NCBI GenBank assembly: GCA_964384235.1
Contig: CAYLJX010000001.1
Span: forward strand, 305,709 to 369,708
Reading direction: 5' to 3'
Length of the DNA stretch: 64,000 nucleotides
Origin: an uncultured Bdellovibrionales bacterium
Lineage (GTDB): Bacteria; Patescibacteriota; Minisyncoccia; Moranbacterales; UBA1568
Position 1 is the stretch's first letter; every line of letters begins with the position of its first letter. The notes below the pieces were generated by a model. It saw nothing but the letters and a program-made list of their open reading frames with translations, was not told the origin of the DNA and searched no databases. A program made the translations under genes and the position numbers. Positions 10,125 through 63,230 of the stretch are shown here, one piece after another.

Positions 10125-10134
10125 TCAAAAACCT

Positions 10135-10488: not shown

Positions 10489-10496
10489 CACCTTTT

Positions 10497-11549: not shown

Positions 11550-11566
11550 ACGAAACGTCACATTCT

Positions 11567-11941: not shown

Positions 11942-11958
11942 GACAACCGGCCCCGATT

Positions 11959-12945: not shown

Positions 12946-12972
12946 CCGTCAGACAAGAATCGTTCCCAACCC

Positions 12973-14346: not shown

Positions 14347-14375
14347 ATAGCATTCATCAGTTTACCTATCACAAA

Positions 14376-14909: not shown

Positions 14910-14988
14910 ACTTTACCGAAAAAGAGAATGTTATTTATCTTCATTGTACCACACGGAATCTCGTTCCTACTCCATCCAACCATCTCAC

Positions 14989-16134: not shown

Positions 16135-16154
16135 GAAAATCCTAACAATCGGAA

Positions 16155-18342: not shown

Positions 18343-18371
18343 ACGTGTTCCCGTATCTGATTATTTCTTTA

Positions 18372-19820: not shown

Positions 19821-19856
19821 GAGTTTCTGATATCCTAAAAGATCACGAGCTATACT

Positions 19857-20564: not shown

Positions 20565-20566
20565 AT

Positions 20567-21565: not shown

Positions 21566-21792
21566 GAAATTTCTTTTGATCTATGAAGGACCTCTTCGAT
21601 AGAACGTACGGATTTCATGGAGGGGATATCAGCACTGTCGATAGCCACGCCGAGCTCCTGCTCAAGACAGAATACGATCTCTATCATCTGCAGCGAATCC
21701 CAATACCGTTCATGATCCTTATCGAGCTCCAAGACCTCCTCTTTTGATTTCTTTAGCACGCTGGCCAATATTTCAACGATTTTTTCAGTCAT
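21562..21792 (-). CDS. Acyl carrier protein (PP-binding)
   Basis: 76 aa, acidic. DSLQMIEIV contains the phosphopantetheine-attachment Ser. Overlaps neighbours by 4 nt. Confidence 0.8.
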   Translation of the reverse strand: MTEKIVEILASVLKKSKEEVLELDKDHERYWDSLQMIEIVFCLEQELGVAIDSADIPSMKSVRSIEEVLHRSKEIS

Positions 21793-21806
21793 AACGATTT
21801 CTTAAT

Positions 21807-23444: not shown

Positions 23445-23815
23445 AGAAGATTCAATGCGTCCCTGGAAACGATCACGCAAGCCACTGCGCTCATCTCATC
23501 ATGAGAAAGGCTAATTTTTGAAACGATACCTTCTTCTTTTACATATCGGACCTGGGGACAACCCCGTTCGTCGTGGTAAATCTCGATTTCATCCAGAGAA
23601 ACCTTCTCCGTGTCGCTCCCGATGCCTGATAATGCCTTTATAAAAGCTTCTTTGGCACAAAACCGGGCCGCGAAGTGCTGCTCCGGATACGACATCGAAT
23701 CACAGTAACGCCGCTCGCTTTCGGTGAAAATCTTTTCATAAAAAGAATAGGGCTTGTTCCTGAAACGGGAAATTTGCTCGATATCCACACCGATTGAAAT
23801 ACTTTCGAGACTCAT
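23441..23815 (-). CDS. acpS: Holo-[acyl-carrier-protein] synthase (4-phosphopantetheinyl transferase)
   Basis: GVDIEQISRF, FTESERRYC and FAARFCAKEAFIKA motifs. My hand translation shows a 1-nt frame inconsistency near 23759, but the ORF track gives an intact ORF. Confidence 0.8.
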   Translation of the reverse strand: MSLESISIGVDIEQISRFRNKPYSFYEKIFTESERRYCDSMSYPEQHFAARFCAKEAFIKALSGIGSDTEKVSLDEIEIYHDERGCPQVRYVKEEGIVSKISLSHDEMSAVACVIVSRDALNLL

Positions 23816-24234
23816 TTTTGCAACTGTCTTAAAAATTCCTCATAACTTCTGATGTAGTCGCTCTCGTTGTACTCCTCGCTCGCCAGTACCATCAGAGCGG
23901 CGCCTTTTGAAAAGTTTTTCATCTCCCTCCAGATCATTCCCTCTATATACAACCCCTTATCAGGCCAATCAAGCGTATACTCCTTTCGTTCCTTTCCGTC
24001 ATCGCAGACGACTACACATGAACCACTGATCGAAATAAGAAGCTGTTTCAGTTCCCTGTGAGCATGATGTCCTCGTACCGTTCCGGGAGTGGTATCGAAA
24101 ATGTAGTAAACTCGCCTGATATCGAACGGAACATGGTCCGTATTGGACTCTAATGCCACAAGGTTTCCCCGATCATCACCGATCGGTTTCAACCGTACCA
24201 CTTCCACTTTTTGCACTAGTGAACATTCATTCAT
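23812..24234 (-). CDS. dTDP-4-keto-6-deoxyhexose 3,4-ketoisomerase (FdtA/WxcM C-terminal cupin family)
   Basis: 140 aa with the typical RGNLVALE...VPFDIRRVYYIFD...RGHHAH region. Confidence 0.85.
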   Translation of the reverse strand: MNECSLVQKVEVVRLKPIGDDRGNLVALESNTDHVPFDIRRVYYIFDTTPGTVRGHHAHRELKQLLISISGSCVVVCDDGKERKEYTLDWPDKGLYIEGMIWREMKNFSKGAALMVLASEEYNESDYIRSYEEFLRQLQK

Positions 24235-27711: not shown

Positions 27712-28072
27712 TCCTTTTTCAGGACAGATCCGTAAGCCGGATTCTGTTTTCATCGTCATTTCTCTTGTCCCGATGTCACCATCGGGATCCTTGCGGTTCT
27801 CCCATATCTTCCTGAGCTCCAAGAAGATACAAGCGCGACCTTGCACCCGGGTAAGGATTTAGCCGTTTCATTTCTGCCTTCCGACAGAATTATTCCCGAA
27901 GGAACCCTCAGTCTTTCGACTTTGGCGTCACTGTTCGCACCTCGTAGGTCACCCTAGACAGGCGTTACCTGCTACCCTTTGCCGCCGTATAACGGCGGCG
28001 AGTGTCCGGACTTTCCTCACCGACAAAGATTTTCATCTCTACCAGCGCGACGATTCGATCTGTCCTGAAAAA
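27712..28072 (-). ncRNA. rnpB: RNase P RNA (bacterial type), rnpB
   Basis: The minus strand carries the P4 5 prime strand GAGGAAAGTCCGGAC, the conserved CAGGTAACGCCTG, and the P4 3 prime strand ACAGAATCCGGCTTA. A long P1 helix forms from CTTTTTCAGGACAGATC and GATCTGTCCTGAAAAAG. Not in the ORF track. Confidence 0.85.
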
Positions 28073-40897: not shown

Positions 40898-42151
40898 TTA
40901 TTCCTTCCGCAAGGCTTCCATCGGAGAAAGCTTGGAGGCGCGGTAGGCCGGAGCGATACCGAAGATCAGCCCGACCGCCATCGCGAAACCCGCTCCCAAA
41001 AGAAGCGAGTCCGGCGTCACCCGAAGCGTCAAAACAAAACCCATCGCGTCAAAAACAACGCTCGCCCCGAACGCTAACAGTATCCCCAGGAGAATGCCGA
41101 TGAGACCGCCCAAAAGCGTGATGATCAACGCCTCAAAGAGGAATTGCCGAAGCACGCTCGCGGACGTCGCGCCTACCGCCTTGCGCAGGCCGATTTCCGA
41201 CGTGCGCTCCGACACCGAGACGTACATGACGTTCATGATACCGACCCCGCCGACGACCAGTGATATCGACGTGAGCGCGAGGAGAAGGATCGTCATAGCC
41301 CCGAGCACGTCATCGAGCGTCGCCTGAGCCTCCTTGATCGACGTCACCGAGAAGTCGTCCTTGTCCGGATCGTCGATGTCATGCCGCTTGCGAAGGAGCG
41401 CGATGATATCCGCGACCGTCTGCGCTTCCAAGGAAGGATCTTTCATCTTGGCGGAGATCATCTGGACATAGTCGACGCCGAGGATCTTCTTTTCGAGCGT
41501 CTTCACCGGCACATAGGTGAAGGTGTCGAGGTCGATGAACCCGGCCGCTCCGCGCGATTCGAGCACGCCGATGACCCGGTACTTCTCACCCTTGATTGTG
41601 ACGGATTCCCCGACTGCTCCGCCACTTCCGAAAAACGTCTCCTTGGTATCCGATCCGAGCACTGCCACCCGCGCGAGATTCTCGTTTTCCTCTTCCGTGA
41701 AAAACCGTCCCGCAGAAAGTTTCAGTTTGTCATCGGCGAGCGGCGCCTCCGCTCCCGATCCGAAAAGCATGATGCGCTTGCCCGTCGAACCGTATGTGGC
41801 CCGCTCCTGCCCGATGGTCCCGGCATAAGCCGCCTCGACATTCGGAAGCTTCCTGATGGCGTCCCGATCATCGTCGGTGAGCGTCGTGATCTGCGTCCCC
41901 ATCGCCCTTGATGTCGCGTTTTCCGAAGACATCTTGCCCGATCCGGGGATCTTGACTTCGATCTGGATGAGATCGGTGCCGAAGCTCTCCACCTGCCCGC
42001 GCACAAATCCCTTGACCCCCTCGCCGAGCACCGTCACCATGACGACCGCGAACACCCCGATGACCACGCCGAGCAAAGCCAAAGCCGTCCGTGCCTTATG
42101 CGTACGGATGGTCTTTAAAGCAAAGAAAAGCGAGACGAACGCATGGTGCAT
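40898..42151 (-). CDS. ABC transporter permease, FtsX/MacB-like (MacB-type periplasmic domain, 4 TM)
   Basis: 417 aa with an N-terminal TM helix, a large periplasmic domain and a C-terminal FtsX domain. Confidence 0.9.
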   Translation of the reverse strand: MHHAFVSLFFALKTIRTHKARTALALLGVVIGVFAVVMVTVLGEGVKGFVRGQVESFGTDLIQIEVKIPGSGKMSSENATSRAMGTQITTLTDDDRDAIRKLPNVEAAYAGTIGQERATYGSTGKRIMLFGSGAEAPLADDKLKLSAGRFFTEEENENLARVAVLGSDTKETFFGSGGAVGESVTIKGEKYRVIGVLESRGAAGFIDLDTFTYVPVKTLEKKILGVDYVQMISAKMKDPSLEAQTVADIIALLRKRHDIDDPDKDDFSVTSIKEAQATLDDVLGAMTILLLALTSISLVVGGVGIMNVMYVSVSERTSEIGLRKAVGATSASVLRQFLFEALIITLLGGLIGILLGILLAFGASVVFDAMGFVLTLRVTPDSLLLGAGFAMAVGLIFGIAPAYRASKLSPMEALRKE

Positions 42152-42166
42152 AGGGAAAAAGACAGC

Positions 42167-43066
42167 TTAAGATCCAGGCGCGGAAGAAGGACGGTTCTCA
42201 GCGACGTGCCTGGCCCTCATCTTCTTCCACTGGGGTATGATATTCCGAACGACGATGCGGACGACGATAAGCAGGGAAACGATCGCGACCGAACCGATAT
42301 ACAAAGCCCGCATCCACCATTCGCCGGAATCCGTTCCTGAAAAGAAACCGTGCAGGACGAAAAGCGGGTAGGCGACAAAGCTTCCGTAGTGGATCGCACG
42401 CCACACCCTGATAGGCATCTTGGAGCGGATTTCTGACGTGAAGATGAGAATGAGGACAAGATAGAACGCGATGATACCGAGACCGACGGATCCGGTCAGA
42501 TCGTATCCCATTGCCGCCCGAAACGGCCGCTCCAATACGAAGGGGACAAGCGCTTCCACAAGGCGCAACCGGAAGAAACCATCAAAGAAAAAACTTCCCA
42601 GGTGAAGCAGAATGGTACCGAGCGCCAAAAACGAAAGAAAGCGATGGACTTCCAAGGCAAGCGCTCCGGAAACATAACGAAGGAAAGCGCGGGAACTGAT
42701 GATAAGGCCGTGCACGACAATGAACGTCAGGAGAACAAAGGAGAGAATCCCGGTCGCCCGACCGAAATACCAGACTGTTTTTTGCGGTTCACCGAGGATC
42801 CCGGGATCCGGCCGCTGTAATTCCAAGAGACGGGAGCTTTCAGGATCCAAAGGGTTGGTGCTCTCACGGATCTCCTCTCCATCGCCGATACCATCGCCAT
42901 CCGTATCAAAAAGCGTCGGGTCGGTCCCATAAATCCGAACCTCGCTCTCGTCAGTCAAGCCATCCACGTCGTTATCCTTGACAGCCGCATGGACAGACGG
43001 CGAAAAAACCGCCAACAGAACGGTTCCCCAGGCAAGTATTATCGATACAAGGATACGGTTTCTCAT
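42167..43066 (-). CDS. Secreted/membrane protein with N-terminal thrombospondin-type-3-like Ca-binding repeats and a C-terminal ferric-reductase-like (MsrQ/YedZ-like) heme-b membrane domain
   Basis: Signal peptide. DNDVDGLTDESE and DTDGDGIGDGEE are DxDxDG repeats. The C-terminal half has 5-6 TM helices with conserved His pairs (VHGLI, LLHLG, IHYG, LHGFF) resembling PF01794. Confidence 0.65.
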   Translation of the reverse strand: MRNRILVSIILAWGTVLLAVFSPSVHAAVKDNDVDGLTDESEVRIYGTDPTLFDTDGDGIGDGEEIRESTNPLDPESSRLLELQRPDPGILGEPQKTVWYFGRATGILSFVLLTFIVVHGLIISSRAFLRYVSGALALEVHRFLSFLALGTILLHLGSFFFDGFFRLRLVEALVPFVLERPFRAAMGYDLTGSVGLGIIAFYLVLILIFTSEIRSKMPIRVWRAIHYGSFVAYPLFVLHGFFSGTDSGEWWMRALYIGSVAIVSLLIVVRIVVRNIIPQWKKMRARHVAENRPSSAPGS

Positions 43067-43094
43067 GACGGATCATTTTTAGGAGATATGCACA

Positions 43095-44009
43095 CTATTT
43101 CCCCTTCCAGAGGTATCGGGCAAAAGCGTCGCTTACCGTTATTGTACCATCTTTCCCTATGAAATAAGCGGCCAGGCCGTTTGCTTGGGCAAACTTCAGT
43201 CCTCGTTCCCTATCCAGAAGGAGGAGCGTCTTGGCATACACATCGGCTTCCGTAGCATGCGCTCCCACCACCGTGACGGAGAGTACGCCGCTGCGCGTGC
43301 TTTTCATGGTAATCGGATCGATCAGGTGCGACTTCTCCTCACCGGCAATATGCCAGATACGGCGGTTGGTCCCGGACGTCGCGACGCTTCGATCCGACAG
43401 AAGAAGCGTGTCAACGGAACGCGCCTTATTGTGCGCATCCTCGATATCGATCGCCCACCACCGGTACCCATGCCCGAGATCCTCTCCGGACACATACATG
43501 TCTCCGCCGGCATCGACGATAAAATGCCGGTATTTCCGCTTGAGAAAATCTGTAATCTGATCAACGATATATCCCTTGCCGATGCCGCCGAAATCGATAC
43601 GAAGCGCGAGCGGTTTCCGTACATGGAAGTCCGGAGCCAGTACGACATCCCTGAACGTATGCCGCGGTGCCGAAAACGCCGCCGCCCTACCTGCCGATGA
43701 GACATGCGTATGTCTCGGGTCAAAGCTCTCACTATACCCCTCCCGTTCCAGGATTGGCAACACGGCCGGATCAAAGATTCCGCCTGTCTTCTCATGGTAG
43801 AACCGACACGTCTCCAAAAGCTCGAAACATTCCGGGGACACCTGCATGTCTTCGGAAGCATTCAACCGGCAGAGCTCGCTTTCCTCTCGGAATCGACTGA
43901 ACCGTTCCGAAAAATCACGAAACATCCGAAAACACGTATCGAGATCGGATTCCATCTCGTCCGCTTCATGAGAAGAGGAAAAGACCCGCACGAAAACATC
44001 CGTCTTCAT
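43095..44009 (-). CDS. FAD:protein FMN transferase (ApbE family)
   Basis: IDFGGIGKGY, VDAGGD and VATSGT motifs. Start chosen at the ATG preceded by GGAGG/GGGGGA (MKTDVFVRVF...). No signal peptide is evident. Confidence 0.8.
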   Translation of the reverse strand: MKTDVFVRVFSSSHEADEMESDLDTCFRMFRDFSERFSRFREESELCRLNASEDMQVSPECFELLETCRFYHEKTGGIFDPAVLPILEREGYSESFDPRHTHVSSAGRAAAFSAPRHTFRDVVLAPDFHVRKPLALRIDFGGIGKGYIVDQITDFLKRKYRHFIVDAGGDMYVSGEDLGHGYRWWAIDIEDAHNKARSVDTLLLSDRSVATSGTNRRIWHIAGEEKSHLIDPITMKSTRSGVLSVTVVGAHATEADVYAKTLLLLDRERGLKFAQANGLAAYFIGKDGTITVSDAFARYLWKGK

Positions 44010-44069
44010 GATTTCCCCCTTGACCTCCCTGGTAGCGGACTTCAGTGGCTGCATACGATCGGGACGATA

Positions 44070-44522
44070 TCACTGTCCGGTATCCACCAGTCCGTCAAGA
44101 TCGCCGTCAAAAAAATCAAGATAGGCGAAGTCGTCTTCGCCGGGATATTTATCGGAAACATCGGGAATGCTGTCCCCGTCGGTATCGGTAAAGTATTCCC
44201 ACTGAGGCACCTTCGGATCCGGATCAAGAGCATCGACCAACTGATCGCTGTCAGTATCGGTATCATAGCCCGCTGCCGTGACGATGACCTGCACCGGGAC
44301 CCGCTCCATGACCGTTATGGTCCTGGTTTCTTCCGTGACAGATGCCTCCTCTTCATCGTCATCCGATGATTGTCGATCATCCTCGGATTCCTCTTCAGAT
44401 TCTTCATCTTCTTCAGCCGAAGCAAACAGGAAGCCGTTCGTCACGTCCCAGGAAAACAGGGCCAGCGATCCAAAGGATGCGCTTCCGACAAACAGAGTGA
44501 GAAAAAGCATCCTGCGTACCAT
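44070..44522 (-). CDS. Secreted acidic protein with TSP3-like Asp-rich Ca-binding motifs
   Basis: Signal peptide, a poly-E/D/S tract, and DTDTDSDQLVD, DTDGDSIPDVSD and DGDLDGLVD motifs. Confidence 0.55.
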   Translation of the reverse strand: MVRRMLFLTLFVGSASFGSLALFSWDVTNGFLFASAEEDEESEEESEDDRQSSDDDEEEASVTEETRTITVMERVPVQVIVTAAGYDTDTDSDQLVDALDPDPKVPQWEYFTDTDGDSIPDVSDKYPGEDDFAYLDFFDGDLDGLVDTGQ

Positions 44523-44525
44523 ATC

Positions 44526-44906
44526 CTAAGAAGTTTTCGTCTTGCGCGTACTGGTCGGTTTCGTGACCTGTACGGTTTCCGTCTTCGTGACCGGCCGTTC
44601 CACGATCTTGGTCACGGTCTTTTGGTTCGCCTTTATCGCATCCGGCTGTTTTTTCAAGAGAGCGTCATACTCCGCCTTTGATCGCTCCATCTCCGCCTGA
44701 TACTCGGCTCTTTTCGAGGCTACCTGGTCGAAATATTCTTTCCTCGCCTGATCGCTTTCCTTGAGGGCCTGCAGATACTCCGATTTCTGCCGGTCTGCTT
44801 TCGCAAAACGATCCTGTTCATCGGTATAGAGCACCAGGAACAGCGATCCGCCCATCCCGAGAATCACAAACAGTATTATGATGACACGTATTTTTGTCTT
44901 ATCCAT
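44526..44906 (-). CDS. Membrane-anchored coiled-coil protein (hypothetical)
   Basis: An N-terminal TM helix followed by a charged helical region. Confidence 0.5.
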   Translation of the reverse strand: MDKTKIRVIIILFVILGMGGSLFLVLYTDEQDRFAKADRQKSEYLQALKESDQARKEYFDQVASKRAEYQAEMERSKAEYDALLKKQPDAIKANQKTVTKIVERPVTKTETVQVTKPTSTRKTKTS

Positions 44907-44953
44907 AGGCTTCCAGTATACCTGAAATCAGCAATCATGGCGAGACCTCTTTA

Positions 44954-46195
44954 TCATTCATACCGGAGTGCCTCCATCGGACTGACTTTCGACGCCTTGA
45001 GCGCCGGATAGAGACCGAAAACGAACCCGATACAGAGCGAGACGAAAAACCCGAGAGCAAGCGAGGAAGGTGGAACGATGAACCGCCATTCGTAGCCGAG
45101 GGTCGGAATGATGAGCGACGCGAGATAGATGACCCCGATACCGAGGACGATGCCGATAAGACCACCGATGAGCGTGATGACCGCCGACTCGAGGAGAAAC
45201 TGCGTGATGATGTGCCGCGACCGGGCACCGACCGCTTTGCGCAGACCGATCTCACGGATCCGCTGCGACACGGAGATGAGCATCGAGTTCATGATCCCGA
45301 TGCCGCCGACCAAAAGCGAGATGGACGCGATGGCCGAGAGAAAGTACTTGAGCACGTCTGTCACGGCCGTCAGTGTCCCCAGCGCCGCCTTGGTACTCCG
45401 GACAGAGAAGTCAGACTCTTCGCCCTCCTCGAGGTTATGGCGCTTGCGAAGGAGCGTCGCGACATCCGCGAGAGTATGTTCTATATTCTCTACCGCATCC
45501 ACCTTGCCGCGCGCGAAGTTGAGATAGTCGATCCCGAGAAGGAGCTTCTGAGCCGTTTCCAACGGGACATACACGAGCACATCAGGATTGGAGAACGCCG
45601 CGGAACCGCGCTCTTCGAGCACGCCCACCACCTTGAAAGGGATATCTTTGAGCGTCACGGTCTCACCGAGAGGACTACGGTCCGGAAAGAGGTCTTTGGA
45701 CCGCGACGATCCCAGGACGATCACCCGGGAGAGATCGCTCTCCTCTTCCGGAAAGAAGAATCTCCCCTCCGCGACACGGATCTCTTCCACTTCGATCATC
45801 TCCGGCGACACGCCCTGAAAACTCACTTCGAACGAATCCGTAGGTGACTCCGCGGTCGCGCTCCCCGTCACGTATCCCGAGACTGCCTTGAGGTGCGGGA
45901 CATTGCGCCGCTCCCGGAGCGCTTTCAGATCGTCGTTCTTGAAGGTCGTGGTGACGATACCGAGAGCCGATGCCGGCGCCCCTTTTTCCTCGGATGCGCC
46001 AGGAAGGATCCCGACCAGGTTCGATCCCACTTTTTCCACCTGTGAGAGCACCAATTGTTGCGCCGACGCCCCGATCCCCATCACCATGATGACGGCCGCC
46101 ACCCCGATGACGACGCCAAGCACGGTCAGAAAGAACCGCAATTTCGACGCGGCAAGCGCCCGGTAAGAAATCTTGAAAGGATCGGAAAGCTTCAT
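44954..46195 (-). CDS. ABC transporter permease, FtsX/MacB-like (second copy)
   Basis: 413 aa. Same architecture as 40898..42151 and clearly homologous. Confidence 0.9.
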   Translation of the reverse strand: MKLSDPFKISYRALAASKLRFFLTVLGVVIGVAAVIMVMGIGASAQQLVLSQVEKVGSNLVGILPGASEEKGAPASALGIVTTTFKNDDLKALRERRNVPHLKAVSGYVTGSATAESPTDSFEVSFQGVSPEMIEVEEIRVAEGRFFFPEEESDLSRVIVLGSSRSKDLFPDRSPLGETVTLKDIPFKVVGVLEERGSAAFSNPDVLVYVPLETAQKLLLGIDYLNFARGKVDAVENIEHTLADVATLLRKRHNLEEGEESDFSVRSTKAALGTLTAVTDVLKYFLSAIASISLLVGGIGIMNSMLISVSQRIREIGLRKAVGARSRHIITQFLLESAVITLIGGLIGIVLGIGVIYLASLIIPTLGYEWRFIVPPSSLALGFFVSLCIGFVFGLYPALKASKVSPMEALRYE

Positions 46196-46196
46196 G

Positions 46197-46919
46197 CTAT
46201 TTCAAAAGTTCGTTTTCGCCGTCCGCGATACGCCGATTTCGGACCGGTTCGTCCGCGACGATCTGTCCGTCCTTCATGCGGAGGATCCGTTTGGCATGCT
46301 CGGCGGTATAGGTCTCATGTGTGACCAGGATGATCGTATGCCCCCTATCGTTGAGTCGCTGGAGGATACGCATCACCTGGAGTCCGGCCTTGGAATCAAG
46401 GTTGCCGGTCGGCTCGTCCGCGAAGATGATTTCCGGGTCGTTTACCAAGGCACGCGCGATGGCGACGCGCTGTTTCTCGCCGCCGGAAAGCTGCCCGGAG
46501 AGGTATCCGGTCCGGTGTGAGAGATCGACCGCCTCGAGCGCAGCCCGGACCTTCGCGTCGTTGTTCTCGACGTGATGCTCGTCATAGAGGAGTGGGAGTT
46601 CGACGTTCTCAAAGACGCTCGTCTTCGGCAGCAGATTGAACGCCTGAAAGACGAAACCGATCTTTTTGTTGCGAAGTCTCGCCAACTCGTCATCGGAAAA
46701 TCCGGAAACTTCCCTGCCATCGAGAAGGTAGGTGCCCCCGGTCGATCGGTCCAAGAGACCCAAGATCTGCATCAAGGTCGATTTTCCCGATCCGGAGGGT
46801 CCCATGATGGAGACGAACTCGCCTTTGGCGATATCGAAACTCGCATCGGAGAGGGCTTTCGTTTCTACGCCTTCATTGGCATATGTCTTGGAAAGATGTC
46901 TGACAGAAATAAGCGCCAT
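46197..46919 (-). CDS. ABC transporter ATP-binding protein (MacB/LolD-like)
   Basis: Start at the internal ATG (MALISVRHLSKTY...). Walker A GPSGSGKST, signature LSGGEKQR and Walker B IIFADEPTGNLD are present. Confidence 0.9.
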   Translation of the reverse strand: MALISVRHLSKTYANEGVETKALSDASFDIAKGEFVSIMGPSGSGKSTLMQILGLLDRSTGGTYLLDGREVSGFSDDELARLRNKKIGFVFQAFNLLPKTSVFENVELPLLYDEHHVENNDAKVRAALEAVDLSHRTGYLSGQLSGGEKQRVAIARALVNDPEIIFADEPTGNLDSKAGLQVMRILQRLNDRGHTIILVTHETYTAEHAKRILRMKDGQIVADEPVRNRRIADGENELLK

Positions 46920-46920
46920 A

Positions 46921-47916
46921 TCACTTCTGTGGAGCGATAATACCGACTTGATCGCCTTCACTAAGACCTGAAACGATCTCAACCAAGCCATCATCGCCTT
47001 CCAGTCCGGTCTTCACTTCGACGCGCTTGAGCGTGCCGTCAGTCTGCTTCACGTCCGCGAACGATTTTCCGCCTTCTTTCACGACCGCCCGGAACGGGAG
47101 AACCGACACGTTCTCACGCTTCTTCGTCGCGATATCGACATTGGCTGTCATTCCCTCCTTGAGACGGCTGTCGGTATCTTTCAGACGGAACTTCACGACA
47201 TACGAAACGACATCCTGCACCACGGTCGCTCCCCGATCGATTTCCGCCACCTCCGCTTCGAAGACATCGGCGGTCGAGAGCGCATCGAACGTCACGGAGG
47301 CCGTCATGCCGGATACGACCTTGGCGATATCGGATTCAGGGACGCGTGCCTCGATAATAAGATCGCCCTCGCTCACCCGAGCCACGACCTTGCCGAGAGC
47401 GGACGTTTCCCCGACACGGATGTCCGCTTGGGAAACTACCCCAGCCATCGGCGAGACGATGATGCTTTCGTCCATCTGCGCGACGATCGAACGGACCCGT
47501 TCTCTTGCCTGCTCCGATGCCAGTTTCTTGGCCGCGCGTTCTTCTTCCTCATTTGTCTTGCTCTTCTTCCGGGCAAGCCGCTCTTCTTCGACAGCGATGG
47601 CCGCGGCGACCCGGGCCTGATTGAGTTCGGTCTGCAGCACTACGCGGTCAAGAGAGGCGATCTTTTGTCCCGCCCCAACCCGTTCCCCCTCCGTCACGTA
47701 TACGTGATCCACCACCCCGATCTTCTGAAAGGAAAGATCGGCATACTCGGTCGGTACGAGTTCGCCCGTCACCGAAACCGTTTCCGCCACCGTCCCGCGC
47801 CGGACCGTTTCCGTCTGATAGGTCGGCTGTGCGGGAGTCTGCTGCCACCGATAGAGACCTATTGCTACGAGAGCAAGGACAACAACCGTCAGAATGATTT
47901 TTGTTTTTCGAGACAT
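46921..47916 (-). CDS. HlyD/MacA-family periplasmic adaptor subunit
   Basis: Start at the ATG (MSRKTKIILTVVVLALVAIG...), giving a TM anchor, a coiled-coil region and a beta-barrel. The 5 prime part of the track ORF is GC-rich non-protein-like. Confidence 0.85.
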   Translation of the reverse strand: MSRKTKIILTVVVLALVAIGLYRWQQTPAQPTYQTETVRRGTVAETVSVTGELVPTEYADLSFQKIGVVDHVYVTEGERVGAGQKIASLDRVVLQTELNQARVAAAIAVEEERLARKKSKTNEEEERAAKKLASEQARERVRSIVAQMDESIIVSPMAGVVSQADIRVGETSALGKVVARVSEGDLIIEARVPESDIAKVVSGMTASVTFDALSTADVFEAEVAEIDRGATVVQDVVSYVVKFRLKDTDSRLKEGMTANVDIATKKRENVSVLPFRAVVKEGGKSFADVKQTDGTLKRVEVKTGLEGDDGLVEIVSGLSEGDQVGIIAPQK

Positions 47917-47921
47917 ATTTG

Positions 47922-48350
47922 CTAAAAGAATTTCGTTTGTTTTTCCGCCTCGTCCATGGCCTTGTTCGCCTCCGCATCCGCCACGGTATTCTGTTCGCGC
48001 GGCACATGGACGAACCGCACCTCGCCGAAATCGAGCATCAGATTCCAGACAGCGAAGAAAAGCTTCTGGATATGTTCCTTTTCCACCTTGTACTGATGGG
48101 TGAGCTGCTTCATGGCGAGTTCCGAATCCATCCGACATTCCACCGCCGTCTGTTTGGCACGCTCCTTGCCGATGAGGGATTTGATCTTCTTGAGACCCGC
48201 CGCGATGGCCATGTATTCGGCCTCGTTATTCGTCTTCTCGCCCAAAAATTCCCCGAACCGCTTGTCGAGCGTCTCGATATATACTCCCAAAGCGGCCGGA
48301 CCGGGATTGCCGCGCGATCCGCCGTCACTGTACATCACGATTTTTTCCAT
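47922..48350 (-). CDS. rnhA: Ribonuclease HI
   Basis: Start at the internal ATG (MEKIVMYSDGGSRGNPGPAA...). The DEDD catalytic residues are present (D..E..D..D). Confidence 0.8.
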   Translation of the reverse strand: MEKIVMYSDGGSRGNPGPAALGVYIETLDKRFGEFLGEKTNNEAEYMAIAAGLKKIKSLIGKERAKQTAVECRMDSELAMKQLTHQYKVEKEHIQKLFFAVWNLMLDFGEVRFVHVPREQNTVADAEANKAMDEAEKQTKFF

Positions 48351-52442: not shown

Positions 52443-54656
52443 TCACGGAGCCGTCCCGTTCGCGCACGGACCGAATCCGGACAAGACCCGGACACCGTTG
52501 ACATTGACACAGCTAGGAGCAAAGGCAGCCTCGACCGCTGAGAGAGAGTAATAGACATTGCCTTGGATGGTCCACGGGAAAGACGGCGTGGAAGACGATG
52601 AGGAACTACCGGAACCGGAAGAAGATCCGGAGGAGGTTCCTCCCGAAGTCACCATATTGAACCGCACCGGGGAAGATTGAGCGTAGTCGGTTCCTTGTCC
52701 TGCGACACCACCATCGTTGGCGAGACTGCAACCGCCGGAATTGCATTTCCTGACGATGGCAACAACTTCGTAAAGACCAGGGGTAGTTAAGTTTCCTGAA
52801 CCGGTCGGCCACTGGTAGGACCCGCTGCTGTTGCCTGATGAAATCGGATTTGTCTGAGAGCTGCCTCCGGCAAGACCGCTCGCGCCACCGGAAGCAGTGA
52901 CCAGCGAGACCTGTAGAATCACCTGGGTAACGGAAGGGGCTCCCGTCACGTTCCAACTGATCGGGATCGGAGAACCGATATTGTATGAACCGTTCTGGGT
53001 GGGAGACGTGAGCGTGATAGTCGTGTTACTCGGAACGGAAGATGGCCCCCCACTGCTCCCGCTCGTACTCCCTCCCGATCCGGTGCAGCTCCCAGCGAAG
53101 TTCAGTCCGAAGAGCTGTACGCTGTTCGTTCCTTGCGGAGTATAGTTCGCCGTGCCGGTGGCCGCCTGGACGTTGCAGGTATACCCCTGATTATTAGCGA
53201 GGGTCTGAGAACGGTTCGCCAGGACACTGAACGACGAAGCGGTCATATTTCCGATCGGTGCCGTCACCTGTGGAGTGACGTCGCTACCACGGCCCACGGA
53301 ACTGAACCGACAGGTGATCGCAAGCGTCATGTTCCCGTTCCCGTCGAAGGCGACCGTGGTGTGGAGCGGTACGCCGTCATTGCTCGTCCGATCGTTCGCC
53401 CAACTCTTCCCATAAAGGAACTGCGAAGAACCCGGAGTGGCGCACACTCCCCCGCCTGTGCTTCCCCCGCCGCTCACGCCGTCAGAACAATTGAAGCCGC
53501 TGGTGCAGTTAGCCGTACCGGAACCGCTGCCACCGGTATCCCCCGAAGCGGTGACGCTCCCGATACTGGACCACGACGTGGTGCCCGAGGTCGTGACCGC
53601 CCTCAACCGATAAGAGTATGTGGTGCTGCCCTGGACGGAAGAGTCGATATAGCTCGTCCCGGTAGTGGTCCCTAAAGCGGTAAAGAAAGAACACGCTATC
53701 CCCTCGCAACGTTGGATCTCATAGGAAGAGGCTCCCGAGACGGGTGTCCAGGAGAGGGAGACGTCACCGCCCGTGGTCGCAAGGGTAGGCTTCTGCGGAG
53801 CCGAGGAGGAAGAAGCGGTTGCGAGAGTAGTCGTACCGGACCAGGCGGAGACACCCTCCGAAGTGACGGTCCGCACCCGATAGGTATAGTTCTGGCCGGC
53901 GGAGAGGTCGGTGTCGGTGTAACTCGCCTGGGTGGTGGTCCCAAGGGAGGAAAAGGCCGTACAGCTCGTACCGGCACAACGCTCGATCTCATAGCCTGAG
54001 GCGCCTGCAACCGGGGTCCAGGAGAGGGAGGTCTGGGAGGGAGAGGCATTGGTGGAAGAGAGAGCGGTGGGAGCGGGAAGATCAGGACGGACCACTGGTT
54101 GGCCGCTGCGGTCATCGGTCACGGAGAGAGGTTCGGTGCCATCTGCTCCGGGAGCGGCTGCGATGAAGCCAGGATCGACGGTGCCGGCAGTGCCAGTACC
54201 GGCCTGGGAGACGATGCTGCAGCTGAAGCTGAAGCCATTGCCTGTGAGAGTCAGACCAGGGATGTTGGCTCCGAGGATTCGGATGGCGGTGTTCACCAGG
54301 AGCCAGGCACCAAGCATGAGAGCGAAGCCGATGAGGGCGGCCTTGATACCGCCTTTGGCGGTAGACATCATGGAGTCGTTGCCGGAGGAGACAATGTAGT
54401 AGATAGCCATGGCCACGATGACGGCGATGGCGAGGATGGTCATGAGACGGAGGCCGTAGTCGATGACACCCTTGCCTCCGAGGACGAGGTGGCAGAGGGT
54501 ACAGGGAGCGGTTTCGTTGATAGTGGGAGTGGACTGGTCATCGACTTGTCTCCCGCAGGGGACGAGGGCGGCCTCCACAGAGTGAAGAGGAAGAAAAGAG
54601 AAAAAGAAGGAAAGCAAGAAGAAAGAAAGGAAAAGGGAGCGGGAGAGGCGGGACAT
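52443..54656 (-). CDS. Large secreted/surface protein with a VirB2/TrbC-pilin-like two-helix membrane region, two tandem fibronectin type III domains, and Ser/Thr/Gly-rich C-terminal domains
   Basis: 737 aa. Signal peptide, CxxxC pairs, then two hydrophobic helices (ILAIAVIVAMAIYYI and AALIGFALMLGAWLL). Two Fn3 repeats (SLSWTPVAGASGYEIERC..., SLSWTPVSGASSYEIQRC...) are followed by low-complexity T/S/G-rich beta-rich regions. Confidence 0.8.
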   Translation of the reverse strand: MSRLSRSLFLSFFLLSFFFSFLPLHSVEAALVPCGRQVDDQSTPTINETAPCTLCHLVLGGKGVIDYGLRLMTILAIAVIVAMAIYYIVSSGNDSMMSTAKGGIKAALIGFALMLGAWLLVNTAIRILGANIPGLTLTGNGFSFSCSIVSQAGTGTAGTVDPGFIAAAPGADGTEPLSVTDDRSGQPVVRPDLPAPTALSSTNASPSQTSLSWTPVAGASGYEIERCAGTSCTAFSSLGTTTQASYTDTDLSAGQNYTYRVRTVTSEGVSAWSGTTTLATASSSSAPQKPTLATTGGDVSLSWTPVSGASSYEIQRCEGIACSFFTALGTTTGTSYIDSSVQGSTTYSYRLRAVTTSGTTSWSSIGSVTASGDTGGSGSGTANCTSGFNCSDGVSGGGSTGGGVCATPGSSQFLYGKSWANDRTSNDGVPLHTTVAFDGNGNMTLAITCRFSSVGRGSDVTPQVTAPIGNMTASSFSVLANRSQTLANNQGYTCNVQAATGTANYTPQGTNSVQLFGLNFAGSCTGSGGSTSGSSGGPSSVPSNTTITLTSPTQNGSYNIGSPIPISWNVTGAPSVTQVILQVSLVTASGGASGLAGGSSQTNPISSGNSSGSYQWPTGSGNLTTPGLYEVVAIVRKCNSGGCSLANDGGVAGQGTDYAQSSPVRFNMVTSGGTSSGSSSGSGSSSSSSTPSFPWTIQGNVYYSLSAVEAAFAPSCVNVNGVRVLSGFGPCANGTAP

Positions 54657-56125: not shown

Positions 56126-57598
56126 TCACTGCGCCCCCAACCCCGTCGGCACGGCAGGAGGAGTGGTGTCGGCTGCTCCGCGCTCGTAGCCGCGCGTTCC
56201 GAGATAGGTCGTCCGATACGATCCCTGCAGATTGCCATTGCTATCCAGGATCCCGGTCGCGGGCGCACCGCTCAACACGTTGGCGACGGTCGGCACCTGA
56301 CCGCCGCTGTAATTGATACGATTGGGTGATCCGGAGGAGTTCACGACGATATCCGCGTTGAAGCTCGCCGGACCGGTATCGAAGTTTGACAATTCGACGG
56401 TGCCAACATAGGTGTTGCGGTAAGACTCGAATGCCCCCCATCCCCCGGTCTCCTGACCGATCCAGAGCGCCATGCTGCCACGTGCCAGATTGTATGATAC
56501 TTCGACATTGTTGACCGTCGGGTAGGTATCGATCCAGATCGCCTGACCGTTCGGGATATTGAAACGGTTGTCCCGTATGTACCAGTAAGAGAAGTTCATC
56601 TTCGGTCCCACACCCTTGGAATCGCTCGCCGTGATATTCGTAAACGTGTTCCGTTCGACCAGAACCTTGTCGGCCCAATACCCGAGGATGCCGTAGGCCG
56701 TGCCGCCGATGAAATCGGAGAACGTATTGCCCACGAACGCGATATGATTCGACTTGCTCCCGCCATTGGCGATCATTACTCCGGACGCGTTCGTGCCGAC
56801 CCCTCCCGCGCCGACCGGCATGTCATCGAAGGTGTTGCGATAGAACATCATGTCGTTTCCGCCGCTGTCGATATGGACGCCGAAGTCGGTATTCATATTG
56901 CGGATCGTCAGTCCTTCCATGTACCAATTCGAAATCGCCGGGTACGCCGAGATATGCGATCCGGTGACGTTGATGACGGGTGACTCGCCTGGATACGCGA
57001 GCCACACCGTCGGCTTGTGCGACGGCATTGCCAGCCGCCACCCGTCCTCGACCGGCGCGGCGTTGGTATTGTATGTCCCGTTGCGATAGTAGACGAACTG
57101 GCCGTTGTATGTCGTGTCCGCCTTCGCGATATACCAGTCGTCAATCGAATTGAACGGCGATGCGGCAGAACCGGTACCGCCGCCCGGCGCCGAAGCATCG
57201 ACGAAGATGAAGCCGCTCGTCGTGACAGTGATCGCCCATGTCACGCTGGCCGTACCACCCGCCGCATCCGTCGCCCGAACCGTCACGGTATGCGGACTGC
57301 CAGTCGTGGTCGGATTCGGCCAAGACAATACGCCGGTTGACGCATCGATGGACATGCCGGACGGCCCACTAATCAGACTGTAGGTATTGGGAAAAGTGCC
57401 GCCGATTACCGCGATCGGCACTTCGTACCGTAAACCCGGATAGGCCTTGTAATAACGGTTGCCGATATCCAACCCAGCACGTGGTGCGATGATCTCAATC
57501 GGTTGAATCGCCGCTTGGGCGTTTTCAGGAAAGAGAGAAATGAGGACCACGAATCCGACAAAGACATCCCGGAAAATACGCGCCGTTTTTTCGGACAT
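56126..57598 (-). CDS. Secreted right-handed parallel beta-helix (pectate-lyase-fold) protein with an N-terminal cadherin-like/He_PIG Ig domain, ending in the DTTPPAVPTGLGAQ tag
   Basis: 490 aa. Signal peptide, then an Ig-like SGPSGMSIDASTGVLSW domain, then repeated N/G-x-x-F/I beta-helix rungs (MFYRNTF, AFVGNTF, VERNTFTN, IRDNRFN). TGA stop directly follows the tag. Confidence 0.85.
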   Translation of the reverse strand: MSEKTARIFRDVFVGFVVLISLFPENAQAAIQPIEIIAPRAGLDIGNRYYKAYPGLRYEVPIAVIGGTFPNTYSLISGPSGMSIDASTGVLSWPNPTTTGSPHTVTVRATDAAGGTASVTWAITVTTSGFIFVDASAPGGGTGSAASPFNSIDDWYIAKADTTYNGQFVYYRNGTYNTNAAPVEDGWRLAMPSHKPTVWLAYPGESPVINVTGSHISAYPAISNWYMEGLTIRNMNTDFGVHIDSGGNDMMFYRNTFDDMPVGAGGVGTNASGVMIANGGSKSNHIAFVGNTFSDFIGGTAYGILGYWADKVLVERNTFTNITASDSKGVGPKMNFSYWYIRDNRFNIPNGQAIWIDTYPTVNNVEVSYNLARGSMALWIGQETGGWGAFESYRNTYVGTVELSNFDTGPASFNADIVVNSSGSPNRINYSGGQVPTVANVLSGAPATGILDSNGNLQGSYRTTYLGTRGYERGAADTTPPAVPTGLGAQ

Positions 57599-60323: not shown

Positions 60324-63230
60324 CTACCTCCCCATATTATACAGCTGGGTCACTTCGGACGGAGACAGGCCGCGGTTGTAGAGGCGGACGTCGTCGATCT
60401 GGCCCGCAGCATTCACGTAGCCGTCGTATCCGATGGAAAGATCGTTGGTTTCGCTGTCCGCCGTCCCGGTGGGCGCGGAAAGTTCCGTCACCGTTTGAGA
60501 GATTCCGTTCACGTACACCACCGGGTCGTTCGTGGTCGAAGTCCGATCGTAGGTCACGACGACGTGCGCCCACTGATCCGCCAGTACGGAGTCGGCTCCC
60601 AATCGCCATTTTCCATCGGTTCCGGAAAAGGCGTGGTAGTACACGAGATGCCCGGCCGTTCCGTTGCAATCCGTCGCATCGTTCGAGCATATTTGAAAAG
60701 CCCAGGTAGTACGGCCCATGACGGCGCGATACTGCGTCAACCCCGACGGCTTGATCCAGGCGGAAATGGTTTTTGCATCGAGATTATCGAATACCGGATC
60801 AGTGAAGAGATCCACTCTGGCACTACTCCCGTCGAAACTAAGGGCTTGGCCGATGCGACCGGGAGTGGCGGAGGCGGCGGACATGCCGATCGCATCGCCG
60901 TGATTGGCGTTGCCGGAAGTGTCTTTCACCTCGGTCGTGGTGTCGTTCCAAGCGACGCTCGGCCCGTCGAAGCTCCACTGCCCGACGAGACCGTTCGTCA
61001 GGACGCCGTTCTGGGAAGACTGGAGCGTCGTCTTGCCGCCAGACGCTTGGTAGATATCGGTCACCTGCGCCTGAGTGAGCGCCGTGTCGTAGATGCGAAC
61101 ATCGTCGAGCTTGCCGTCGAAAGGAATGGTAGTGCCGGCATACCCGATGCCGATGGCCAATGCATCGCCGTTGGATAGGTCTCCCGCTATCGAACAATCG
61201 TTACTCCCGATGTTCGTCCCGTCGAGGTACAGCGTCGCGACGTGGCTGCTATCGACCGATAGCACATAGTGATGCCATACGCCGGTGATATCGCCGACAT
61301 TGACGTACCAGCCGCAGTCGTCCGACGCGTCGTTCAAGAACGCGGTTAGCAGATTGCCATCGAACAACAGTCCATACCCTTGGGAAAGGTCGTTTGAGGC
61401 TTTGAAGAGAAGCGCATCCATGGTGCCGTTCGTATCCCGATAGAACCAGCCCGCGAGGCTGAAGGCTTGGCCGGAACCGAAATCCAACGCGCCGCTTGTC
61501 GGATCGGCCACGGCGACGTAATCGTCGGCGTCGTCGAAATTGAGGGATTGTCCGAGGCGTCCAGGGGCGACCGTCGGGCCGTTGGTGAGCGTCCCATTGT
61601 TCGTTGCACGACTACGATCGAGAGCGGCCGCCCCCCGCACATCCGTTCCGTCAAACGTCCAATACCCGACGAGATTGGTATTAGGGTCGTCAGGATGAGT
61701 CTCTTGATACAGTCGCCGAGCCTCGTCGGGAGAGAGGGCGCGATGATACGTCCGCACCTCGTCGATCTTGCCGTCGAAAGGATTGCCCGCATCCGATTCG
61801 GCCGCGATACGGAAATCCACCGCGTTGCCCAGATTCCCGATACTCGCCGTGGAGCTCGCGGTACTGTTGTCGAGACGGCCGTCGATGTAGAGATCTATTC
61901 CCTTGGCGTCATGCCAGACTGCCACGAAATGGTGCCAGCCGGTGGCAGTAAACGTACTCGCCGAAGCAAGCGTGTACTGATCGCTCGCCGTCCCGCCGCC
62001 GTCACCGACGGTAAAGTTGAGCTTGTCATTGGTCGCGTCGATCCACACGATATATCCGGCATCCGTATTGGTAGCGGAACTGTTACGTTTGGCGACGATG
62101 GTATCCTCGGTCGTGGCGGTATCGCGGTTGAACCAGCCCGTCACCGTCACATCAGCGCCGTCAGGAACATCCAGGACACCGCTCGCCGGATCGGCGACAC
62201 CGGCATACTGGGTCGATCCGTCGAAATCGATCCCTCCGCCTATCTGACCGGTCGTCCACGTAGGACTGGCTGTCAGGGAAAGGGTATTGCCGTTCCCGCT
62301 CGCGTCCGTCGCGCTGCTTCCCGAACCGTCGTCGAGCTTCCAGTAGCCGGAGAGGCCTTCTTCGAGGACGTCATCCCCCGGACGGAGATTGGCCGTCACC
62401 TTGCCGAGATCGTAGAGACTCGCCACTTCTGTCGCCGAAAGAGCACGATTATAGAGACGAATTTCGTCCAGGGTGCCGCTGAAGTTCTCGTTGTTCATGG
62501 TACCGATCTGCTGCTCGCCCGCTGTCCCAGTGATATTGTCGAAGAAAAAGTCCGTCGACGCGCTCCCGGTCGTATACGTAAGCGTCTGCAGGACGCCGTC
62601 GATGTAGAGCTTGTGACCGGAGGTATCGTCGGTGAACACGACGTGATGCCAATCGGTCGGGTTCGGGAGCGTCACGCTGGCATCAACCGTCGCCGTACAA
62701 CTGGATCCGGACGCTGTCATCCAGAGATAGATCGTGCTGTTCTGCATGTCCATAGCGAGCTGGAACTGGCCGCGATTACTGGTGCAATTATCGTACCCCC
62801 AGAGCGTCCCTGAGGTCGGCGTCTCCCCAACCGTCCCGCTGTACTTGATCCACATGGCAATCGTCCCGGTCGTGTAACTGTCGAAAACGCTCGGGGCGAT
62901 ACCTACCGTACCTGCCGTTGTCGGAAAACGAAACCCCTGACCTAATCGACCCGGAACTTCCGTCGGCGCATCGCCGCCGATCTGAAGATTGATGTGACGA
63001 GCGTTCCCGGACACGTCCTTTACTTCGCTCGTCGTATCCGCCCAAACGATAGCTCCACCGTCCAAAGTCCAGTACCCCTGCAGACCGTTGGTAAGACTCC
63101 CCGTCTGCGGACTCTGAAATTTGGTCGAAGCCTGAGACTTTTGATAGTACCACCAGCCCCCTACCGCCAGGATGATGAGGGTCGTGATGATGAAGACGTA
63201 TTGGATGACCCGCGCTTTGGTTTCGGACAT
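60324..63230 (-). CDS. Membrane-anchored giant surface protein with four tandem LamG / concanavalin-A-like lectin domains
   Basis: 968 aa with an N-terminal TM helix. Four repeats each end with LDE/DDVRxYNRALS..EV..LY. W-x-H/WHH motifs are typical of LamG. Confidence 0.85.
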   Translation of the reverse strand: MSETKARVIQYVFIITTLIILAVGGWWYYQKSQASTKFQSPQTGSLTNGLQGYWTLDGGAIVWADTTSEVKDVSGNARHINLQIGGDAPTEVPGRLGQGFRFPTTAGTVGIAPSVFDSYTTGTIAMWIKYSGTVGETPTSGTLWGYDNCTSNRGQFQLAMDMQNSTIYLWMTASGSSCTATVDASVTLPNPTDWHHVVFTDDTSGHKLYIDGVLQTLTYTTGSASTDFFFDNITGTAGEQQIGTMNNENFSGTLDEIRLYNRALSATEVASLYDLGKVTANLRPGDDVLEEGLSGYWKLDDGSGSSATDASGNGNTLSLTASPTWTTGQIGGGIDFDGSTQYAGVADPASGVLDVPDGADVTVTGWFNRDTATTEDTIVAKRNSSATNTDAGYIVWIDATNDKLNFTVGDGGGTASDQYTLASASTFTATGWHHFVAVWHDAKGIDLYIDGRLDNSTASSTASIGNLGNAVDFRIAAESDAGNPFDGKIDEVRTYHRALSPDEARRLYQETHPDDPNTNLVGYWTFDGTDVRGAAALDRSRATNNGTLTNGPTVAPGRLGQSLNFDDADDYVAVADPTSGALDFGSGQAFSLAGWFYRDTNGTMDALLFKASNDLSQGYGLLFDGNLLTAFLNDASDDCGWYVNVGDITGVWHHYVLSVDSSHVATLYLDGTNIGSNDCSIAGDLSNGDALAIGIGYAGTTIPFDGKLDDVRIYDTALTQAQVTDIYQASGGKTTLQSSQNGVLTNGLVGQWSFDGPSVAWNDTTTEVKDTSGNANHGDAIGMSAASATPGRIGQALSFDGSSARVDLFTDPVFDNLDAKTISAWIKPSGLTQYRAVMGRTTWAFQICSNDATDCNGTAGHLVYYHAFSGTDGKWRLGADSVLADQWAHVVVTYDRTSTTNDPVVYVNGISQTVTELSAPTGTADSETNDLSIGYDGYVNAAGQIDDVRLYNRGLSPSEVTQLYNMGR

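Follow-up and report, generated by a model that had tools for sequence, protein, structure and literature searches.

Among the described systems that pair an ApbE enzyme with a membrane-bound electron carrier, the ApbE-associated MsrQ-like gene clusters (Meheust et al. 2021, eLife, PMC8238504; Huang et al. 2024, PMC11334425) come closest to the locus considered here. In these clusters, the gene of a di-heme protein with a PF01794 domain lies beside apbE, and electron transfer from the cytosol to the outside has been proposed. Operationally, they are defined by the presence of a PF01794 gene at a distance of at most five genes from apbE or FMN_bind, together with a signal peptide or lipidation site on at least one of the ApbE, FMN_bind, DUF2271, and DUF3570 proteins (PMC8238504). 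The third component of the canonical clusters is a flavinylated protein, and members of the candidate phyla radiation (CPR) are strikingly under-represented among flavinylation systems (PMC8238504). This survey was the only literature found that links ApbE with CPR, and no description of the cassette reported below was found. The latter cassette, composed of four genes, is located in a stretch of 64,000 nucleotides (nt; further referred to as the window) of the genome of an uncultured bacterium assigned to the Moranbacterales (GenBank assembly GCA_964384235.1, contig CAYLJX010000001.1, positions 305,709 – 369,708). As in the MsrQ-like clusters, its PF01794 gene falls within this distance of apbE, both genes being adjacent, and its relatives carry a PF00175 NAD-binding domain. 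Unlike these clusters, it encodes no FMN_bind, DUF2271, or DUF3570 substrate, all its open reading frames (ORFs) were negative in a scan for the [S/T]GA[S/T] motif, and its ApbE has neither a signal peptide nor a lipobox, whereas it does encode a TSP3 calcium-binding ectodomain and two new accessory proteins. Because the flavinylation machinery carries no extracytosolic signal and a motif-bearing substrate is lacking, the cassette is a variant of the ApbE/MsrQ-like systems and not a member in the strict sense.

The four genes (44906 – 42167, minus strand) are separated by 3, 15, and 28 nt, and all four ORFs were retrieved where a preliminary description of this DNA had placed them. In the direction of transcription, they encode a protein of 126 residues (P126; 44526 – 44906) without Pfam or NCBIfam family, a protein of 150 residues (P150; 44070 – 44522) without Pfam match, a leaderless ApbE-family flavin adenine dinucleotide (FAD):protein flavin mononucleotide (FMN) transferase of 319 residues (43095 – 44054), and a membrane protein of 299 residues that combines TSP3 repeats (PF18884) with a ferric reductase domain (PF01794; TSP3-FRD protein; 42167 – 43066). 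The ORFs and Pfam matches bear out that apbE adjoins, at 28 nt, the gene of a TSP3/ferric-reductase-type protein and that two small genes accompany this pair. The latter genes, however, lie upstream of apbE in the operon and do not follow the pair, as had been described. Identical proteins were recovered from assemblies of at least four independent samples. Four Cys residues occur in ApbE and none in P126, P150, or the TSP3-FRD protein. An Rfam scan revealed no FMN riboswitch or other regulatory RNA close to the cassette.

The TSP3-FRD protein is a predicted ferric-reductase-domain protein of the cytochrome b type, its His pairs being spaced for an inner and an outer heme. Its C-terminal domain matched PF01794 (Ferric_reduct; residues 105 – 236) with 33.2 bits (cut-off 28; E-value 6.3e-8), and among about 115 homologues, nearly all carried the same precomputed annotation. 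The PF01794 identity, on which the preliminary description had made its case depend, was upheld by this score above the Pfam cut-off and by four invariant His residues. Indeed, in an alignment of 41 homologues (28 – 57% identity), His141 and His155 in one helix (H-x13-H) and His226 and His239 in another (H-x12-H) were invariant. The predicted heme-binding membrane core comprises residues 96 – 280 (42227 – 42781, minus strand), and we infer that the protein binds heme. This spacing corresponds to the bis-heme motif of the NADPH oxidases (NOX), such as gp91phox (His101/115 and His209/222). The core also contains an outer loop (S243-G-T-D-S-G-E249), of which G244 and D246 were invariant among the 41 homologues and residue 245 was always Thr or Ser. 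Ahead of the core, two bacterial TSP3 calcium-binding repeats (42833 – 42985, minus strand; residues 28 – 78; 38.2 bits, cut-off 25, E-value 1.3e-9), predicted to be extracellular, display the DxDxDGxxDxxE ligand pattern of such repeats. Their ligands D31, D33, D35, E42, D54, D56, D58, D62, and E65 were invariant as well, and this part of the protein resembles the BSP domain of Bap (7c7u). The protein starts with a hydrophobic segment (a signal peptide or the equivalent of transmembrane helix TM1) with a VHA/A cleavage-type site, followed by the five-helix core. The distribution of charges places the acidic TSP3 module and the S243-GTDSGE loop outside, and the Arg/Lys-rich loops 124 – 133 and 212 – 223 and the C-terminal tail inside. 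An AlphaFold model built on the 41-homologue alignment had a mean predicted local distance difference test score (pLDDT) of 89.3. Its best solved matches in Foldseek were DUOX1, the transmembrane domain of csNOX5, STEAP2/1, and SpNOX, with a probability of 1.0, but with E-values of only 0.04 – 0.3 and TM-scores of 0.3 – 0.54. The label 'MsrQ-like' given in the preliminary description is better read as 'ferric-reductase-domain superfamily', no MsrP partner being present.

The ApbE protein matched PF02424 over its full length (profile positions 1 – 266 on residues 16 – 298; 193 bits). Its closest solved relatives are the enzymes of Treponema pallidum, Vibrio cholerae, Escherichia coli, and Salmonella (4xdt, 6nxi, 2o18, and 3pnd; E-values 1e-19 to 1e-22). 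The motifs FSRF..SEL..N, GGIGKGY, AGGD, ATSG, H243-LIDP, and TEADVYAKT (A-x-D-x-x-A-K-T, of the Mg-binding A-x-D-x-x-x-x-T type) are all retained, H243 in HLIDP being the equivalent of the catalytic His257 of V. cholerae, and the flavin-transfer motifs are conserved among about 20 orthologues encoded in such cassettes. Judged by these motifs, the enzyme is predicted to be catalytically intact and to transfer FMN to Ser or Thr. The position of Asn55 of the T. pallidum enzyme is occupied by Phe in the window protein (FSRF) and by Phe or Tyr throughout the clade. As had been noted before, a signal peptide is absent: the ORF is already maximal, and the domain starts at residue 16, leaving no space for a leader. 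Furthermore, the peak 15-residue hydropathy of the first 60 residues did not exceed 1.41 in any of 120 ApbE homologues, whereas for the membrane protein, 105 out of 115 homologues reached at least 1.8. As the former holds for 120 out of 120 homologues, the missing leader is a fixed trait of this ApbE clade. Cytosolic ApbE proteins have been documented in other systems (PMC12052999).

The two small proteins differ from each other. P126 (pI 9.6) carries an N-terminal membrane anchor (residues 8 – 28) and, behind a coiled-coil spacer, a conserved basic tail with Ser and Thr residues, and the positive-inside rule suggests that its N-terminus is inside and its C-terminus outside. The tail (KPTSTRKTKTS; 44529 – 44561, minus strand) ends in an invariant Ser and is a candidate non-canonical flavin acceptor or docking motif. 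Indeed, the C-terminal Ser and Q87 were the sole invariant columns in the alignment of CPR P126 proteins. As the search for P126 homologues yielded four proteins only, due to the low complexity of the query, tails were analyzed from ORFs read from the loci. A P126-like protein was found in all lineages of which the upstream sequence is long enough, and in 21 out of 21 lineages (among which L001, L003, L006, L099, L102, L104, L108, L110, L111, L114, and L117), including high-GC relatives and the FNR-fused version, a basic tail rich in hydroxyl residues leads up to the final Ser of this small anchored protein. Besides KPTSTRKTKTS, examples of such tails are KKPKSSRKTKSS, GKKTKTS, SRTTRKS, STSTRSS, VASSGSS, VSTHVS, SRRSHGS, TRIRTRQS, and RPRTTVS, while the spacer is variable (coiled coil, Pro/Ala-rich, or Ser/Thr-rich). 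P150 (pI 4.05) contains a signal peptide (residues 1 – 36, cleavage between FASA and EEDEE), a polyacidic segment (residues 37 – 60), and three DxDxDG-type calcium-binding-like loops (residues 85 – 150), with D89, D91, D93, D97, D100, P101, P103, and D113 being invariant. An hhalign comparison with the TSP3 part of the reductase protein aligned just one Asp loop of 12 residues. Of the two further secreted, acidic calcium-binding proteins in the preliminary description, P150 alone is acidic and has loops of the calcium-binding type, whereas P126 is basic and membrane-tethered. Together with the TSP3 module, P150 probably builds up a calcium-stabilized acidic outer scaffold, which may dock the basic tail or bind a substrate.

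Homologues of the membrane protein numbered about 390 at 90% clustering. Those bearing a name were Candidatus Moranbacteria/Moraniibacteriota, from which the assignment to the Moranbacteria was derived. A genome scan with the full-length alignment yielded three useful loci out of 80, due to the generic TSP3 pattern, and an alignment of the membrane domain only worked on metagenome contigs. The cassette turned out to be conserved in ultra-small bacteria of the Moranbacteria type and in other CPR lineages, with differing flanks. The order P126-like, P150-like, apbE, and TSP3-FRD was found with the same MacB-type flanking genes as in the window in loci L001, L004, and L005, and among unrelated neighbours in L003, L006, L111, and the P0109 contig. 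Because this order recurs in unrelated surroundings, the four genes are a unit independent of the neighbouring ABC pump. The gene apbE is linked to the reductase gene, directly upstream of it, in about 24 of 28 distinct lineages, so that the synteny, a second point on which the preliminary description had staked its case, holds as well. Both genes overlap by 4 – 38 nt in L001, L003, L102, L104, L111, and L117. In the high-GC relatives (L102, L108/9, L112/3, L116/7, and L118), apbE codes for a leaderless enzyme and shares 4 nt with the reductase gene, and a small anchored protein is encoded upstream wherever the sequence extends far enough. P150 is absent from L099, which contains P126-like, apbE, and reductase genes. 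In L095, L096, L114/L115, and L110, which retain the genes for the tail protein, P150, and the reductase protein, apbE may be relocated or lost.

Two of these loci add an FNR-like domain. In L104, a gene coding for an FNR-like protein (FAD_binding_6/NAD_binding_1) precedes apbE and the reductase gene, and the C-terminus of this protein runs via a membrane helix into a Ser-ended tail. L111 contains genes for glutaredoxin, ferredoxin, P126-like and P150-like proteins, ApbE, and a TSP3-FRD-FNR fusion protein of 571 residues (P0253), which corresponds to a complete NOX architecture. The glutaredoxin and the small 4Fe-4S ferredoxin are encoded immediately 5' of the cassette, on the same strand (L111 3656 – 4219). 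In three loci (L003 8955 – 12153, L006 1014 – 4353, and the P0109 contig), the cassette is adjoined by nrdD and nrdG, coding for an anaerobic ribonucleotide reductase, in the orientation of the cassette in two loci and converging with it in the third; flavodoxin-type activation, oxygen sensitivity, or chance may account for this. In a wider context, a search with the membrane-domain profile retrieved 4,379 clusters (1,892 with an E-value below 1e-10) among 1.84 billion representatives, and the consensus of this family retains WY..RA.G, the four His residues, and HG..AGTD. The GTD loop is therefore a family signature rather than a mark of ApbE linkage. Among the 123 nearest relatives scanned, PF01794 was found in 102, TSP3 in six, a fused FNR-like domain in two, and FMN_bind in none. 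Two high-GC proteins, P0286 and P0296 (L110 and L112), possess an extra C-terminal membrane helix and a beta-rich extracellular domain with two Cys residues and without Pfam family, which holds the sequence F-[ST]-G-x-[LV]-(A)-S, loosely resembling a flavinylation site.

The operon may represent a transmembrane electron conduit of CPR bacteria of the NOX/MsrQ type, unusual and reduced in comparison with known systems, to which ApbE supplies the cofactor, a reading considered somewhat better than an even bet. It builds on the relatives that add an FNR-like NAD(P)H domain, either as a split protein (L104) or as a fusion (L111), and these also strengthen the resemblance to ApbE-associated transmembrane electron-transfer modules that had been proposed before. 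Co-inherited with the reductase protein are a motif-intact, leaderless ApbE and one or two extracytoplasmic accessory proteins. Electrons would enter from a cytoplasmic reductant, in the relatives from NAD(P)H via the FNR-like FAD domain, and the donor for the conduit of the window genome would be encoded elsewhere in this genome. They would then traverse the membrane via two hemes and exit at the outer face to an acceptor, which may be a metal ion, oxygen, or the surface of a partner, with ApbE providing covalently bound FMN at a non-canonical site.

Several known systems resemble parts of this scheme. NADPH oxidases (SpNOX, 8qq7/8qt6; csNOX5, 5o0t; DUOX1, 6wxr) gave the best structural matches and share the two-helix His spacing, and P0253 has their full architecture of ferric reductase and FAD/NAD(P)H domains. 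Unlike these enzymes, the window protein has no dehydrogenase domain, a five-helix core behind a signal peptide, a TSP3 insertion, and a link with ApbE. The STEAP metalloreductases (7tai and 8ucd) belong to the same fold class, and in these a flavin at the inner face feeds a heme, whereby extracellular metal is reduced; unlike the cassette protein, they are eukaryotic, bind a single heme, and possess an oxidoreductase domain of the F420 type, and they lack covalent flavin. Similarly, E. coli MsrQ (YedZ), acting with MsrP and Fre, is a stand-alone heme b membrane protein with a ferric reductase domain that is fed by a separately encoded cytosolic flavin reductase, but the cassette lacks MsrP, the sequences are distant, and MsrPQ itself needs no ApbE. 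Flavin-based extracellular electron transfer in Listeria (FmnB/PplA/Ndh2/EetAB; PMC9973259) likewise combines a monoderm cell, an ApbE-type enzyme, and covalent FMN on a surface-tethered protein that in Listeria passes electrons outward. It differs from the cassette in that FmnB is secreted as a lipoprotein, the FMN_bind domains of PplA are canonical, the membrane step relies on a quinone instead of hemes, and FAD has a dedicated exporter. Finally, the sif iron-uptake cluster of Bifidobacterium breve (sifE/apbE; PMC5449479) encodes a predicted ferric reductase with an FMN-binding domain, and an apbE mutant of this species is sensitive to ferrous-iron chelation (PMC5449479). The B. breve genes, in contrast, are canonical and not adjacent in the same way, and no iron transporter was linked to the CPR cassette in the loci examined. 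Iron uptake was considered as a function of the cassette and rejected, no Feo, VIT1, or NRAMP gene occurring in about 28 contexts.

A central question concerns the residue that receives the flavin. The C-terminal Ser of P126 is ranked first, albeit as a tentative choice. It was selected because ApbE esterifies FMN to Ser or Thr, because the third gene of canonical MsrQ-like clusters codes for a flavinylated protein, and because terminal tags and C-terminal extensions serve well as ApbE targets (PMC12052999, PMC11334425). Ranked second, and unlikely, is the cytoplasmic TM4-TM5 loop of the reductase protein (Thr210/Ser211). Third come a protein encoded elsewhere and a non-transferase role of ApbE, which taken jointly are doubtful, and an improbable fourth is Thr245 of the outer loop, which was down-weighted as a cassette-specific acceptor, given that the GTD signature is family-wide and present in cassettes without apbE. 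In line with the first choice, P126-type proteins may, rather speculatively, form a new class of ApbE substrates with FMN esterified to the C-terminal Ser, acting as a flexible, membrane-bound flavin leash that takes electrons from the outer heme to acceptors outside the cell. As ApbE has no export signal, modification of the tail is proposed to take place in the cytoplasm. If so, FMN would be attached shortly before the tail crosses the membrane post-translationally, and no FAD exporter would be required in these flavin-scavenging organisms.

Several observations weigh against the conduit and its tail acceptor. The 64-kb window contains no gene for an electron donor, an acceptor enzyme, or an iron transporter, and neither an iron transporter nor a terminal reductase was linked in any of the about 28 contexts. 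CPR bacteria are not known to make heme. Searches for FMN_bind, DUF2271, DUF3570, and D-x-x-[ST]-G-A-[ST] were negative for all cassette proteins, in the window as well as in the relatives, in agreement with the preliminary description, which had seen no classical FMN-binding domain. Concerning the tail, the Gly-Ala of the canonical motif is missing, and it is predicted to be outside while ApbE was leaderless in all homologues, so that its flavinylation requires modification before export or an unknown export route. Moreover, apbE is absent between the small protein gene(s) and the reductase gene in four lineages (L095, L096, L114/L115, and L110), and cassettes without apbE still keep the tail protein. 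Lastly, the GTD loop and the Ser at the end of TM4 are general to a family of more than 1,800 clusters and not specific for ApbE linkage.

The leaderless state of ApbE throughout its family may also point to an acceptor inside the cell. In NOX and STEAP proteins, the flavin (FAD) is held at the cytoplasmic face, which is where the TM4-end site of the reductase protein lies. A cytoplasmic ApbE could accordingly place FMN on the TM4-TM5 loop, beside the inner heme, as an electron entry replacing the FAD of the missing NOX-type dehydrogenase domain. At least one hydroxyl residue is present at position 210 or 211 in 41 out of 41 homologues, the window protein has no dehydrogenase domain, no FNR-like gene occurs within the 64 kb, and cytosolic ApbE proteins do exist (PMC12052999). 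However, the loop has no canonical motif, L111 and L104 retain ApbE although they possess an FAD/NAD(P)H domain, the TM4-end Ser is missing in some members of the wider family with apbE upstream (such as P0296), and the invariant Ser of the tail would be left without a role, making this alternative unlikely as well. The absence of an acceptor motif from the cassette and the existence of cassettes without apbE would fit a substrate encoded elsewhere in the genome, such as the cytoplasmic FMN_bind reductase of Klebsiella, the adjacency of apbE and the reductase gene then reflecting co-regulation only. A cytoplasmic ApbE with a soluble fumarate reductase as substrate has indeed been documented (PMC12052999). 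Nevertheless, apbE and the reductase gene are found side by side, their stop and start codons overlapping, in low-GC CPR bacteria as well as in high-GC relatives, while all other neighbours change, and the window contains no FMN_bind or flavinylation-motif gene, except for an SGAS sequence in a surface protein with fn3 domains, which renders a distant substrate distinctly unlikely. No other real gene of the window carries such a motif, and this SGAS is most likely due to chance.

The missing substrate motif might also mean that ApbE is not a transferase here, but an FAD-binding or FAD-pyrophosphatase partner that provides the cytochrome, at its cytoplasmic face, with non-covalent flavin. The homologue of T. 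pallidum acts as an FAD pyrophosphatase (PMC4767422), and translational coupling suggests stoichiometric production of both proteins. This role is improbable, as the Asn55 position of the pyrophosphatase is Phe or Tyr, as in transferases, throughout the clade and the catalytic His is conserved. That the four genes are accessory to the flanking MacB/HlyD ABC machinery, for instance as an exported cargo with helpers, with the redox features being incidental, would agree with their position between two FtsX permease genes in a tight, same-strand array in the window, L001, L004, and L005. As no MacB genes occur near the cassette in L003, L006, L111, L114, L099, and L104, this is very improbable. 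Still less credible is a methionine-sulfoxide repair system of the MsrPQ type, in spite of the name 'MsrQ/YedZ heme-binding subunit' given to homologues by some sources. A gene for a molybdopterin MsrP/YedY (Oxidored_molyb) was found neither in the operon nor in the window or related loci, and E. coli MsrQ is not known to have the GTD signature.

CPR bacteria (Patescibacteria) are regarded as fermentative organisms without electron-transport chains. A widely conserved di-heme conduit with its own flavin transferase would mean that transmembrane electron transfer is probably possible in many of them, and would imply that these bacteria must acquire heme and flavin. Their noted paucity of flavinylation systems arises partly from surveys that required a signal peptide. 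For the study of flavinylation, the cassette provides a clean case of an 'orphan apbE', the encoded enzyme being intact by its motifs, leaderless, and tightly coupled to a membrane cytochrome, with no known acceptor domain or motif, and it offers a concrete, testable candidate acceptor in the Ser with which the tethered tail proteins invariably end. Since the triad of apbE, ferric reductase, and tail genes also occurs in high-GC relatives, the answer would reach well beyond CPR.

In the window, the cassette is part of an array of eight closely spaced genes on the minus strand (48138 to 40898), coding for, in the direction of transcription, an HlyD-like adaptor, an ABC ATPase, a MacB/FtsX permease, P126, P150, ApbE, the TSP3-FRD protein, and a second MacB/FtsX permease. 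The first three, identified by Pfam matches (44954 – 48138), lie directly upstream of P126, and the second permease (40898 – 42151; MacB_PCD and FtsX matches) starts 15 nt 3' of the reductase gene. Two paralogous permease genes thus bracket the cassette, preceded by one ATPase and one adaptor gene, in a LolCDE-like layout. A weak promoter-like site (44915 – 44943, minus strand; 9 out of 12 matches in a consensus scan only) is located in the 47-nt gap between the first permease gene and P126. Elsewhere in the window, a low-GC block (approximately 10000 – 24000; GC content of 0.44 – 0.47 versus about 0.56 elsewhere) contains genes for glycosyltransferases, a DegT aminotransferase, a DUF2142 protein, a methyltransferase, and a GNAT/glyoxalase protein, and probably represents a surface-polysaccharide island that was possibly acquired horizontally. 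No tRNA genes were found within the 64 kb, and the sole Rfam match was a bacterial RNase P RNA of class A (27717 – 28066, minus strand; 119.6 bits). The genes at 52443 – 54656, 56126 – 57598, and 60324 – 63230 (minus strand) code for large proteins that are predicted to be located at the surface, with fn3, He_PIG, and four Laminin_G_3 domains, and two adjacent proteins of 423 and 449 residues belong to no family.

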